A stretch of DNA of 62,966 bases, filler included, from Octopus bimaculoides (lineage: Eukaryota): NCBI RefSeq assembly GCF_001194135.2. It is 7 parts of 7 records of this genome, joined end to end, with 100 filler letters (N's around TTAATTAATTAA, not from the genome) between each part and the next. Parts side by side here need not be neighbours in the genome. Positions count along the whole stretch, not along the records: positions 12,816 to 32,681 come from NC_068984.1; positions 32,782 to 42,928 come from NC_068988.1; 5 more parts are not named here. One strand, written 5' to 3'. How positions within the stretch are numbered: position 1 is the stretch's first letter; every line of letters starts with the position of its first letter. This document shows positions 14,030 through 33,055 of the stretch, piece by piece. Made by a program: the position numbers and the translations under genes. The notes below the pieces were generated by a model, which did no database searches, had not been told where the DNA came from, and worked only from the letters and a program-made list of their open reading frames with translations.

Positions 14030-14428
14030 TTCCTTAGCGATATTTCGTCTGTCTTTATGTTCTGAGTTCAAATTCCGCCGAGGTCGACTTTGCTTTTCAT
14101 CCATTCGGCATCGATAAATTAAACACCAGTTACGCACTGGGGTCGATGTAATTGACTTAATCCCTTTGTCTGTCCTTGTTTGTCCCCCTCTATGTTTAGC
14201 CCCTGGTGGGCAATAAAGAAATAAAAAACGTTAGCATGCCGGACGAAATGCTTAGCGGTATTTCGTCTGTCTTTACGTTCTGAGTTCAAATTCCATCGAG
14301 GTCGACTTTGCCTTTCATCCTTTCGGGGTCGATAAATTAAGTACCAGTTGCGTGATGGGGTCGATCTAATCGACAGCCCCCCCCTCCCCCAAAACATTTC
14401 GGGCCTTGTACCTAGGGTAGAAAAGAAT
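14030..14428 (+). mobile_element. Tandem SINE family C pair (Tx1-tailed unit followed by headless unit)
   Basis: Two copies of the GAGGTCGACTTTGCCTTTCATCC core with different tails; junction near 14226. Confidence 0.85.
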
Positions 14429-14687
14429 ATCATATTTCAGGGTTGTTTCCTCTGCCTTTCTAAACTTAACAAAGCTAATGGAACATTTTCTCTTCAATAC
14501 AAATGTTTTAATTTTAGTTACTTAAACAATTTTGGTTCACTTCAATAAGTATGTTAGCACCAACTTAAGTATATTTCTTTTCTATGAAGGAGGCAATTCT
14601 AGAATGAAGTACTCCCCTATTCCCTATCATTCATTCAAACATAAACATATATGAAAAATAGAGAAAAATAAAACTGTGTATACACAC

Positions 14688-14857
14688 CTGGTTTTAACAC
14701 GGCTATCTTCAGGTTTCTCCAGATATACAATAGCTTGATTGTTGCTGGTTACTTGCAAAACTGTGTCGATAATATGTAAAATTCCATTTACGGCATTGAG
14801 GTTTGACCGTATAATGCGAGCACCATTGATGTAGATTTGTTCAGTGTTATCAGAATT
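14688..14857 (-). CDS. FAS1 (fasciclin)-domain secreted protein, coding exon 4
   Basis: Acceptor TCTTTTCTCTTCAG, donor CAG|GTGTGT; 170 nt, phase 0 to 2; NSDNTEQIYINGARIIRSNLNAVNGILHIIDTVLQVTS... contains the FAS1 H2 motif. Confidence 0.93.
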
Positions 14858-15024
14858 CTGAAGAGAAAAGATTTATAAAATGAATGAATGAGTGGGTGAC
14901 TGGGCAGAAAGCAGAATAGATAGACCAAGGGACAGAAGAATAGAAAGATAGTTGGGAACGAGTGGTAAAAAGAAGTTTTGTCCTATGTCTTTGTAACATA
15001 CAAGTGTAAAAAATTAAGTGTCTA

Positions 15025-15230
15025 CTCTTTTACTTGTTTCAGTCATTTGACTGTGGCCATGCTGGAGCACTGCCTTTAGTCGAGCAAATCGACCCCCAGA
15101 ACTTATTCTTTGGAAGCCTAGTACTTATTCTATCGGTCTCTTTTTGCTGAACTGCTAAGTTACGGGAACGTAATCACACCACCATCAGTTGTCAAGCGAT
15201 GGTGGGGGGGGGACAAACACAGACACACAA

Positions 15231-15271
<41 letters not shown>

Positions 15272-15432
15272 TACAACGGGCTTCTTTCAGTTTCCGTCTA
15301 CCAAATCCACTCACAAGGCTTTGGTCGGCCCAAGGTTATAGTAGAAGACACTTGCCCAAGATGCCACGCAGTGGGACTGAACCCGGAACCATGTGGTTGG
15401 TAAGCAAGCTACCTACCACACAGCCACTCCTG
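15025..15432 (-). mobile_element. SINE family A, complete
   Basis: Reverse complement of the 12048 copy, with internal (TA)/(CA) repeat. Confidence 0.9.
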
Positions 15433-15740
15433 CACCTGTTATTTGTTGTATTTTACAGCCCAGTAAGCAGAATGGAATGATGAAGGTAAATACAACTGAG
15501 TAAAAGAGCAAGCACTCAATATACAAAACCATGACCTAATTCTGCTTCCTGATTGAAACCATTCCACACAAATATGGTACAAATAATCCACTACAATGAT
15601 AATCCTCACATATTTACGCCTTACACTACTTAGCATATAATGTAATACATTATATATATATATAGATAAATATGTAAACATACGTAGTCTTACTAATTAA
15701 GCTCAATAAACCAATTGAGAGTAAGTGATCAGGAAGTAAG

Positions 15741-15930
15741 CCTTATACATTTTGAGTTTTCCCTGTACCTTCTGAGTCTTCCCTATATTGTTTGGGTCTT
15801 TCTTGTATCTTTTGAGTCTTGCCTATACATTTTGAGTCTTCCCTATACATGTTGAATTGATCTTGTGCCTTTTAAGCCTTGCCTATGCATTTTATGTCAT
15901 GCTTATACATTTTGAGTCTTCCCTATACAC
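15741..15930. repeat. Degenerate ~20 bp minisatellite, consensus CCCTATACATTTTGAGTCTT, about 9 copies
   Basis: Periodic TTGAGTCTT and CCTATACAT words. Confidence 0.8.
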
Positions 15931-15954
15931 TGTGTTTTGTAAAGCATCATTCAA

Positions 15955-16100
15955 AGCAGCAAGCATGACTGAATGGTTAAGAAGTTTGCTTCACAATTAC
16001 AAGGCTTTAGGTTACATCACACTGAGCAAAACCTTGGACAGGTGTCTTCTACCATAACCTTGGATCAACTCAAATCCTGTGTTAAAATTGAGAAGAAACT
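15955..16100 (+). mobile_element. SINE family A head, old copy
   Basis: Diverged match to 1101-1262. Confidence 0.65.
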
Positions 16101-16299
16101 GGTCGGAGGTATTTAAGATATATAATTTAAGGGTTTAGCTTTATTATACAATATCGCCCTGATTCTGCCTTGTTACTGTGTTAATCTAACAAATGTTTGT
16201 AAAATACTCAGTCACTTTCACCATAATTCAACAAGCAAATAAGTCAATTAATCAAACTGCTGGAACACTCATTGTCAAAACTGGCATGAGATCCATTAT

Positions 16300-16642
16300 T
16301 TTTATGTTACCAGCGTTGCCTTCTAGCACTTGTGCTGGTGGCATGTTAAAAAAATCATCCGAGCGAGGTCGTTGCCAGTGCCGCAGAACTGGCTGCCGTG
16401 CAGGTGGCACGTAAAAAACACCTTTTTGAGCATGGCAGTTGCCAGTACTGTGTGACTGACCCTCGTGCCGTTGGCACGTAAAAGCACCCACTACACTCTC
16501 GGAGTGGTTGGCGTTAGGAAGGGCATCCAGCTGTAGAAAGTCTGCCAGATCAGATTGGAGCCTGTTGCAGCTTTCTGGCTTGCCAGTCCTCAGTCAAATC
16601 GTCCAACCCATGCTAGCATGGAAAGCGGACGTTAAACGATGA
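16300..16642 (+). mobile_element. RTE-type 3' tail repeat
   Basis: Shares about 200 bp with 12816-13045; internal GGCACGTAAAA repeats. Confidence 0.75.
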
Positions 16643-16984
16643 TAACAGAATATTTACAAGGTTTCTATACCTAAATCATCAAGTACTGATCAGATGCTCT
16701 CATTAATTTGAGTGATGAGAGTGATGTGTAATTAATTGTGTTGATGTATGTTGCATCGTCATTTATTTTGTACATTGCAGAATGTTTATAAGGTTTTAAG
16801 TCCCACAGGAAGACTTTAGACAGGTATAGCATAATAAGCTGAGAGTCTCAGAATCGCTTTCTGAGTATTTTCTCTCATTTTAAAATTATTTCTACTTACC
16901 GATTTTACTNNNNNNNNNNCTGACCTAAAATTGTAAATTTTTCCTTATTTCGTTTTGAAAAGAAGGTAGAAAATGCCAAGGAAA

Positions 16985-31024: not shown

Positions 31025-31427
31025 TACTCTTTTACTTGTTTCAGTCATTTGACTGTGGCCATGCTGGAGCACCGCCTTTAGTCAAGCAAATCGACCCCAG
31101 GACTTATTCTTTGTAAGCCTACTACTTATTCTTCCGTCTCTTTTGCCGAACCGCTAAGTTACGGGGACGTAAACACACCAGCATCGGTTGTCAAGCGATG
31201 TAGTGGGCACAAACACAGACACACAAACACATACACACACATACATATATATATATACATATATACGACGGGCTTCTTTCAGTTTCCGTCTACCAAATCC
31301 ACTCACAAGGCTTTGGTCGGCCCGAGGCTATAGTAGAAGACACTTGCCCAAAGTGCCACGCAGTGGGACTGAACCCGGAACCATGTGGTTAGTAAGCAAA
31401 CTACCTACCACACAGCCACCCCTGCAC
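31025..31427 (-). mobile_element. SINE family A, complete
   Basis: Collinear with 15025-15432. Confidence 0.9.
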
Positions 31428-31488
31428 CTATTATAGACAGGAAGATAGATCTTAATGTAAGGATTTATTGTCTTGAGTGAAAAGCTTA

Positions 31489-31780
31489 GCAATATTTTGA
31501 TAATTTAGTTGCATTATTCGACAAGTTACAACAAAAGCTGCCTAGCAGTCAAAGTAGAGGCTATTATGTTGCACCGTCTGAAGTCACCTTTCTGTCAGTT
31601 TTTTTTTCTATGCTGATATCAGTCCTTGTCTTTCGAAGTGAAGAACTCCTTCACTAAAGCTTCTAACTTCTTCTAGTTAATGAAGCGCAGGAAGTGAGTC
31701 ACGGATCGGAAAAAGTAATAATCCAAGGGAGATATTGTTCCACAATCCTAAAGTGCATAATCAATGGTTAAGCAAGGGCC
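31489..31780 (-). mobile_element. mariner transposase 3' end (left arm of a fold-back)
   Basis: Reverse complement aligns to 32080-32321; YYF.RSVTHF...LEEVRSF motif. Confidence 0.8.
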
Positions 31781-31789
31781 AGCTTCCGG

Positions 31790-32321
31790 AACCTGTTGCC
31801 AAACATGGGCATCTCGAATGCAAGGTGATGCTTTGTATCTGATGGAATTATGAGGGGTTAATTCACTACAAGTTCGTTCTGGACAGTCGTACCATTGTTG
31901 CCAACCTATAATTCCAAACAGCTAGCGCGGATGTATGCTATTGTGCAGCAAAAACACTCGGCATTGGTTAACCGAAAGCGAGCCCTTTTGCACCAAGACA
32001 GCGCAAGACCTTATACCGCTCGAACGACACGGAATAAGCTCCAGGAACTTGGAAGAATTGAACTGATGTCACACCCCTAGCTCCCTCAGGTTGTTACCTG
32101 TTCCGATCTACGACTCACTACCCACGTTTGCGACGCTTCATCAACCAAGGGGAGGTAGAAGCTTCAGTGAAGGAGTTCTTCGCCTCGAAGGACAAGAATT
32201 CGTATTAAAGAACTGGCAGAAAGCTGACTCCAGACGATGCAACACGATGGCTTCTACTTTGAATGCTAAGCTTCTCTGTTGTAACTTGAGGAAGAACGCG
32301 AATAACTTACCAAAATATTGC
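31790..32321 (+). mobile_element. mariner transposase C-terminal half and 3' end
   Basis: KVMLCI*WNYEGLIHY...LVNRKRALLHQDSARPYTAR.T..KLQELG.IELMSHP...YLFRS...EFFASK; decayed. Confidence 0.9.
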
Positions 32322-32324
32322 GAA

Positions 32325-32681
32325 ATAGACAGCCTGCCGAACTATATCCAGGCAATGCAACCTCACATCGCCAATACGAAGGTAACAACCTTACAGGCGC
32401 ATGAGGAAAGAGAAAAAGTCCTCAATGCCCACATGATGATGTGGACAATTGTTCTTAGACCCCAGAAGCGCACAGCCAACAACTTCCAAGCCTGGAACAA
32501 TGATATCCCGACGCTGTATGGGCTCCGTAAGGACCACAAAGTAACAACTAATCCTGTAGTGGGACCACCAACAAGACCAGTCTGTGGAGCGAATGTCGCT
32601 AGTAACTACAGGATTTCCTACTTCCTCTCAATGATCATACGCCCCATAATCCAGATGATGTCACCTGATGTCTGTGACAGC
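32325..32681 (+). mobile_element. Penelope-like reverse transcriptase, N-terminal fragment cut by a scaffold join
   Basis: IPTLYGLRKDHK...GPPTRPVCG...NYRISYFLSMIIRPI resembles the PLE P.LYGLPK.HK...P.RP.V motif; open frame. Confidence 0.75.
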
Positions 32682-32725
32682 NNNNNNNNNNNNNNNNNNN
32701 NNNNNNNNNNNNNNNNNNNNNNNNN

Positions 32726-32737
32726 TTAATTAATTAA
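32726..32737. other. Artificial scaffold linker
   Basis: 44 N + TTAATTAATTAA + 44 N. Confidence 0.9.
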
Positions 32738-32781
32738 NNNNNNNNNNNNNNNNNNNNNNNNNNNNNNNNNNNNNNNNNNNN

Positions 32782-32839
<58 letters not shown>

Positions 32840-32884
32840 TGTGCGCGCGGGGGGTCTACGCATAAAACATTTATATATGCACAA

Positions 32885-33055
32885 CTGCGTGCCCAAAGAG
32901 CCACGCAGTGGAACGGAACCTGGAACCATGTGGTTGGGAAGCAAACCTCTTATTTCGTTATTGCCCACAAGGGGCTAAACATAGAGGAGACAAACAAGGA
33001 CAGACAAAGGAATTAAGTCAATTACATCGACTCCAGTGAATTACTGGTACTTAAT
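32885..33055 (-). mobile_element. Tx1-tailed SINE C 3' part joined to a truncated family A head
   Basis: Minus strand reads ...GCCCCTTGTGGGCAATAACGAAATAAG|AGGTTTGCTTCCCAACCACATGG. Confidence 0.8.

Follow-up and report, generated by a model that had tools for sequence, protein, structure and literature searches.

Several long interspersed elements (LINEs) with an apurinic/apyrimidinic (AP) endonuclease insert at one fixed site of a repeat, among them Tx1L of Xenopus (in Tx1D), Tx1-8_Crp, Tx1-4_AMi, Tx1-9_AMi, Kibi/Koshi and Keno (PMC4494074). The targets listed in the available part of that paper are DNA transposons, long terminal repeat (LTR) elements, U2, U5 and 5S genes, satellites and microsatellites, and no short interspersed element (SINE) is named there. 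The closest described system is that of crocodilian SINEU and Tx1-Mar, in which a SINE and a Tx1-type LINE both prefer a site in an abundant transposon, and in which tandem copies of the SINE were judged to be sequential insertions (Kojima 2015, PMC4494074). Here we analysed a window of 62,966 nucleotides of Octopus bimaculoides (assembly GCF_001194135.2; genome 2.34 Gb), made of seven stretches joined, in which the tail of a SINE named C1 runs directly into the head of another SINE. C1 is about 231 nt long and carries the LINE-like tail T1; its sisters C2 and C3 carry the tails T2 and T3. These belong to family C (about 200-230 nt), family A being a separate SINE family of about 420 nt. SINE positions (C15, C48 and so on) are numbered from the first G of the C head.

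As in SINEU and Tx1-Mar, a SINE and a Tx1-type LINE of the octopus show a site preference in an abundant transposon (PMC4494074). The target of SINEU is a Mariner DNA transposon and its head is derived from small nuclear RNA (snRNA), whereas the octopus target is the SINE family itself, at sites 15 and 48, with the target site duplication (TSD) mostly hidden. The octopus elements do not belong with SINEU/Tx1-Mar as defined by a U1/U2-derived head and a Mariner target, their targets being SINEs, and an Rfam scan of 28900-37100 matched no snRNA in the SINE heads. In the literature searched, which did not extend to Repbase, Dfam and subscription journals, no report of a SINE-targeting Tx1 element or of these octopus pairs was found, and a term search of the available text of PMC8869645 and PMC3706591 gave no mention of SINE. 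Further related papers are PMC4640811, PMC4758252 and PMC13282606; the repeat library of the last, as well as Repbase, may already contain these families and targets. Tx1-type targeting of transposons is already known; what appears to be new here is Tx1-type targeting of a SINE that shares the element's tail.

We conclude, with a probability of about 0.7, that the junctions arise by insertion of C1 at C^AGAAAC, 15 bases into an older sister SINE, probably by means of an L1/Tx1-group LINE enzyme. The evidence consists of the junction counts, TSDs of about 15 nt starting with AG, an older downstream unit, a LINE tail on the SINE, and a LINE fixed at C48. All three tail-to-SINE junctions reported in a preliminary description of the window are present in the sequence. 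Since the element ends in AAATA, the exact joints were set at 14223/14224 (+), 29277/29278 (+) and 32951/32950 (-). The downstream SINE had been described as missing its first ~15 nt at all three loci; this holds for both C joints, where the downstream unit starts from position 15, but the family-A head at 32950 lacks about 23 nt. No A head is visible upstream at 32950, where a microsatellite and a gap are found, and nesting is therefore unreadable at that locus. The upstream unit at 14033 is headless and begins at about position 42.

Genome-wide, the exact 24-nt T1 tail word occurs 7,437 times and is followed 4-10 nt later by the C-head word in 1,931 cases (26%), with none in a reversed-pattern control; exact C heads number 57,899. 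The flanks of the first 100 exact-tail copies, all from one contig (itself labelled C1) between 0 and 21 Mb, comprised 43 at C15 by alignment (42 by script and L191 by eye), 12 at a site in the A body, two in the A head, two at C48, three in microsatellites and 38 in other DNA; one pair in this sample, in locus L168, may be an assembly duplicate. Downstream flanks are thus far from random, and the junctions are general, lying at one exact base in a quarter to two fifths of copies. A retrotransposon has been regarded as target-specific when over 20% of its flanks are of one kind (PMC4494074). Both figures for the SINE at C15 lie above this value, as does that for a LINE found at C48 in 35 of 37 cases by exact pattern.

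Among copies inserted outside C15, 37/57 have TSDs of 9-25 nt (median 15), which start with AGAA(A/T), usually after C, defining the C^AGAAAC site. Full-length family-A copies hold both a head site and a body site, the latter near position 144-154. At the body site all eight TSD-bearing insertions are in hosts reading AGAAAC, whereas background copies most often have GGAAAC forms. The preliminary description had proposed that the A-box/D-loop of a tRNA-like head is recognised as such. This is not borne out, as C^AGAAAC is used in the A body more often than in the A head, and in unrelated DNA; the use of AGAAAC in A-body hosts therefore identifies the common factor as a sequence word and not a tRNA D-loop. 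It had also been suggested that the insertion regains an RNA polymerase III (Pol III) promoter from its target. We found that 61 of 79 copies outside position 15 have their own full head, so that no promoter needs regaining, and that the C48 site splits the predicted promoter boxes.

C15 is used 5 to 20 times more often than expected from a short motif. In an evenly spaced sample of 332 kb, C heads made up 30 of 1,418 YAGAAW sites (2.1%), and in DNA flanking the tail copies no more than 9 of 211 (4.3%). Under a generous weight matrix the share rose to 7.7%, a value inflated by a C head (L191) among the 25 training sites. The A-body site was over-used as well (12% against 0.8% in the background), and homology to the incoming SINE is therefore not the whole reason for the excess; a longer recognised word is possible.

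That the T1 tail is shared with L1/Tx1-group LINEs was confirmed, LINEs with a zf-RVT domain ending in a T1-related tail. In one such family (L270) the last ~45 nt align with the T1 tail with about six differences. Its copies reach 5.25 kb within the host; their open reading frames (ORFs) are broken and gapped, and pieces from different copies match PF03372 (endonuclease), PF00078 (reverse transcriptase, RT) and PF13966 (zf-RVT), with one upstream ORF having no Pfam match. This AP-type endonuclease, RT and C-terminal zf-RVT are those of the L1/Tx1 group. None of 112 homologues is named Tx1, the best named LINE among them being from Argonauta; the tree comprised only the local families and three database proteins. 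We take the LINE to be of Tx1 type from its tail type and its targeting, and not from placement among named Tx1 elements.

This LINE ends at position 48 in 27 of its 30 best copies and in four of four further copies obtained with a query without target bases. The two exceptions to the exact pattern given above end at a look-alike word; these counts overlap with the best copies. Both C1 and C2 elements serve as hosts. The host head was found upstream of eight copies, at a distance of 0.26-5.25 kb, and seven of these have TSDs of 9-20 nt; in 12 of 16 long stretches fetched around the LINE no host head was within reach. The same C48 joint is present at loose public contig ends from organisms B, C and E. 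Beyond these, 617 tails that end in AAATA, counted from the joint sequence alone, meet position 48; 82 of the first 100 are of an AGTAAAG variant. A LINE with a tail of this type is thus specific to the SINE almost without exception, but at position 48 and not at 15. For the position-15 junctions a LINE partner is presumed; the C48 LINE agrees with their tail and not with their target.

Whether the pairs are nested insertions or a dimeric family was examined in 100 pairs, 16 of which came from a query ending in target bases and the rest from exact-tail or tail-plus-head searches; loci from the former query were excluded from the target counts and included in the pair statistics. Of 84 scorable pairs, 58 had the more diverged unit downstream and 19 had it upstream; divergence of the downstream and upstream units was 6.8 versus 4.3% at non-CpG positions (p 9e-5) and 19 versus 11% at CpG positions (p 2e-7). 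TSDs around the whole pair, taken in the preliminary description as the mark of one dimeric family, were present at 43 of 77 loci (null 28/385), but nesting predicts them too. Their identity (88.9%) is near that of the TSDs of free T2 copies (86.0%, p 0.27) and below that of C1 TSDs (93.8%, p 0.018), as compared on TSDs of at least 10 of 13. Two loci (L152 and L238) retain a doubled head with its TSD, and in L127 the join to a family-A host is seamless, at a match of 9 nt.

Variants common to both units fell with distance from the junction (12/34, 11/53, 13/104, 8/101 and 9/174, against permutation values of 14, 9, 6, 5 and 5%): sharing is 35% at positions 15-22 and reaches background by 39-80, the span of a hidden TSD. 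Among six subfamily positions only position 19, within the TSD span, was concordant between the units (p 5e-4); positions 61, 63, 64, 125 and 128 showed no concordance (p 0.47-1.0). Head positions 1-14 do not separate host from newcomer (6.9 versus 6.2% divergence, same consensus). Taken as a whole, the pairs show neither equal-age units, nor linked variants, nor one fixed second unit, and most of them look like nested insertions, as the older downstream unit with its outer TSD, the sharing near the junction and the doubled heads indicate.

Several observations weigh against this conclusion. Of the 88 pairs in which a head is visible, 86 have a single one (12 more pairs show no head), as a seamless dimeric master would predict too. 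T2 downstream units are younger than free T2 copies from the same loci (7.8 versus 13.1%, p 2e-5) and have A at position 19 in 45 of 48 cases, versus 11 of 30 free T2 copies; the hosts are not a random draw of the residents. There is a weak excess of sharing at positions 39-140 (48/700 versus 4.7%, p 0.0025), and a Mantel test detected no linkage between the units, with only a weak signal in its positive control (rho 0.04-0.06). The upstream units were chosen by their exact tail, and the strict C15 share in the flank sample is 32%, versus 26% genome-wide. No LINE with its end at position 15 turned up among 30 of 142 matches, and a second search gave no matches; by eye nothing LINE-like lay upstream in 16 of 16 further matches, and none ended there among 50 zf-RVT loci (30, plus 20 of 150 matches).

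The alternative that survives best is a single dimeric master, or a small number of them, from which most pairs would have been copied. A master (C1 plus headless C2) would be transcribed into a single RNA and inserted via the T2 tail, nesting having only founded the masters. The single heads, the T2-type outer TSDs enclosing the whole pair and the youth of the downstream units agree with it, as does the lack of a run of four T, a Pol III stop, in the T1 tails of the window. Masters of this kind do not account for outer TSDs older than the C1 TSDs, for the concentration of sharing at 15-38, or for the missing linkage at the five other subfamily positions and in the Mantel test. The consensus of the upstream unit is the same as that of the monomers over 165 positions, and the host tails are of three kinds (59 T2, 6 T3 and 6 T1, with 29 unclear), with some hosts diverged by 15-29%. 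We therefore consider this alternative unlikely as an account of most pairs. Most likely the pairs are mostly nested, biased to the youngest and best-matching hosts, with a minority of re-copied dimers possible.

For nested insertion at C^AGAAAC we propose the following course. C1 likely borrows the enzyme of an L1/Tx1-group LINE, whose endonuclease would nick the bottom strand at C^AGAAAC, with reverse transcription starting from the tail. A top-strand nick about 15 nt downstream would then free a host end homologous to the new cDNA, and annealing of this end in register with the cDNA would hide the TSD and leave one head. This homology, or base pairing with transcripts that continue beyond the tail, may cause C heads to be hit 5-20 times over the motif. 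Some pairs, a minority, may since have been re-copied as dimers. Where the host has T at position 19, so does the upstream unit in 10 of 16 pairs, compared with 10 of 71 where the host has A, and these counts fit the resolution of about half of the heteroduplexes to the host base. A footprint of read-through was sought in 44 TSDs, where the downstream copy had changed toward the C-head word five times and away from it twice (p 0.45).

In R1 and R2 it has been proposed that the cDNA anneals to the target and primes the second strand, and that transcripts with flanking target sequence give precise joints; R1 TSDs are 14 bp (available part of PMC2718515). There the homology is 1-27 nt of co-transcribed ribosomal DNA, whereas in the octopus the homology to the host extends over the entire incoming SINE.

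The annealing step could be replaced by later loss: a doubled head with its TSD would form first, and the direct repeat of ~30 nt would be lost by slippage or single-strand annealing, targeted nesting being kept. Doubled heads do exist at L152 and L238, and a similar gradient of shared variants is expected. Such loss would be needed at 86 of 88 loci while TSDs elsewhere survive at ~94% identity, and it leaves the excess over the motif unexplained, which makes it quite improbable. Least credible of all is template jumping, in which the RT, while copying C2 RNA, leaves it at position 15 (AGAAAC) and continues from the 3' end of a C1 RNA to give chimeric pairs at new sites: the short match of the head word to the bases behind most C1 tails, the T2-type outer TSD and the unlinked variants suit it, but under it the units and the TSDs should be equally old and no sharing particular to a locus should occur at 15-38, contrary to what was observed, and it explains neither the family-A insertions nor the C48 LINE.

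A wider interpretation of targeted nesting can be offered tentatively, and we regard it as rather doubtful. The helpers and siblings of one SINE superfamily would land in that superfamily itself, at two exact bases. As the incoming cDNA would be completed by pairing with the host, nesting would swap tails and bodies between sister families and make new masters; read-through RNA would reinforce the site, and tail subtypes would sort by site, in line with the AGTAAAG variant at C48. About a fifth of T1-tailed copies have C2-type bases at 61/63. If true, SINE superfamilies would in this way feed their own exchange of tails, a process that has long been inferred for them. That Tx1-type elements hide in other repeats is well known, and no host function is implied here. 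The thousands of dated nested copies form a natural data set for second-strand priming and for the shift of target choice between sister families, and nested pairs are at risk of misannotation as dimeric SINE families.

C1 has the features of a SINE, namely its length, high copy number, a median TSD of 15 nt and a LINE-like 3' tail. Words resembling the A and B boxes are seen by eye in the head; ARAGORN predicted no tRNA genes in the window, and in 28900-37100 no tRNA was matched by Rfam at E values up to 5. The octopus SINEs OK, OR1 and OR2 are tRNA-like and of similar size. In predicted hairpins of the C head (29047-29110), position 15 opens the first loop and position 48 closes the loop of a predicted ~13-bp inverted repeat. 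Such loop-edge placement was not seen for the A-body site, and neither head nor tail has a strong fold z-score (-1.1 to -2.4). The features of the window are listed in Table 1.

Table 1. Elements and duplications at and around the tail-to-SINE junctions of the window
Feature	Position	Strand	Remark
C1 SINE copy without its first ~41 nt, ending AAATA	14033..14223	+	T1 tail common to L1/Tx1-group LINEs
C2 SINE (T2 tail) from position 15 on	14224..14425	+	likely older host
Worn outer TSD of host, left copy	29025..29045	+	right copy 29762-29783
Single head, C1 body and T1 tail	29047..29277	+	no visible seam
C2 SINE from position 15	29278..29444	+	interrupted by 10-N gap
Repeat of 29165-29444 after the gap	29455..29734	+	probable assembly duplicate; 280/280
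End of the host's T2 tail	29735..29763	+	
5'-truncated C1 copy with T1 tail	32951..33060	-	
Family-A SINE piece from ~24 nt into the head	32890..32950	-	5' head part not visible
Free full-length C1 monomer in GATA/GACA repeat	36727..36957	+	fourth tail copy; own TSD 36711-36723 / 36958-36970
Free, unoccupied C2 monomer	51531..51741	+	example of intact host
Full-length family-A SINE	31018..31434	-	reference copy

Gaps of 10 N bordered by exact repeats of SINE parts were found in the window (29445-29454) and at L003, L026, L069, L107, L125 and L168. They are assembly overlaps able to mimic extra tandem copies, and the exact repeat across the gap in the window is probably such a duplicate and not a fourth locus. 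Empty sites were sought in public contigs for 28900-29900 and L250: in runs of other organisms the two flanks are present, attached to the head or to the host tail, and no contig spans the repeat. C1-into-C1 dimers and trimers occur at L123, L011, L023, L159 and L170, the first two with an outer TSD of the AGAA type. At L235, about 30 nt resembling LINE coding sequence replace host positions 60-95. C1 copies with a five-C tail variant (L331, L335, L336, L353 and L357) are mostly not joined to AGA; 3 of 8 run into AAT, versus 2 of 186 for the common variant, which suggests that this tail subfamily uses a different helper.

Other LINEs were also seen. The sister LINE family L259 was considered as SINE-targeted and rejected (0 of 30 copies); a subfamily of its type (L313-L316, L326, L327 and L330) ends before a shared sequence starting CTTCGTTGATG, probably another repeat as target. 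The 3' ends of the zf-RVT LINEs L080, L081 and L090 precede a shared motif with CCAGACC and AGCCAC, a possible third target. Three copies of another zf-RVT family (L264, L267 and L269) end in (TTA)n, like microsatellite-targeting Tx1 elements. Within the window, decayed LINE pieces lie at 18972-19436 (+), matching RVT_1, and at 40855-41388 (-). A LINE relic near a TAT repeat at 2585-2965 (+) has no Pfam match and by eye resembles a restriction-like endonuclease end.

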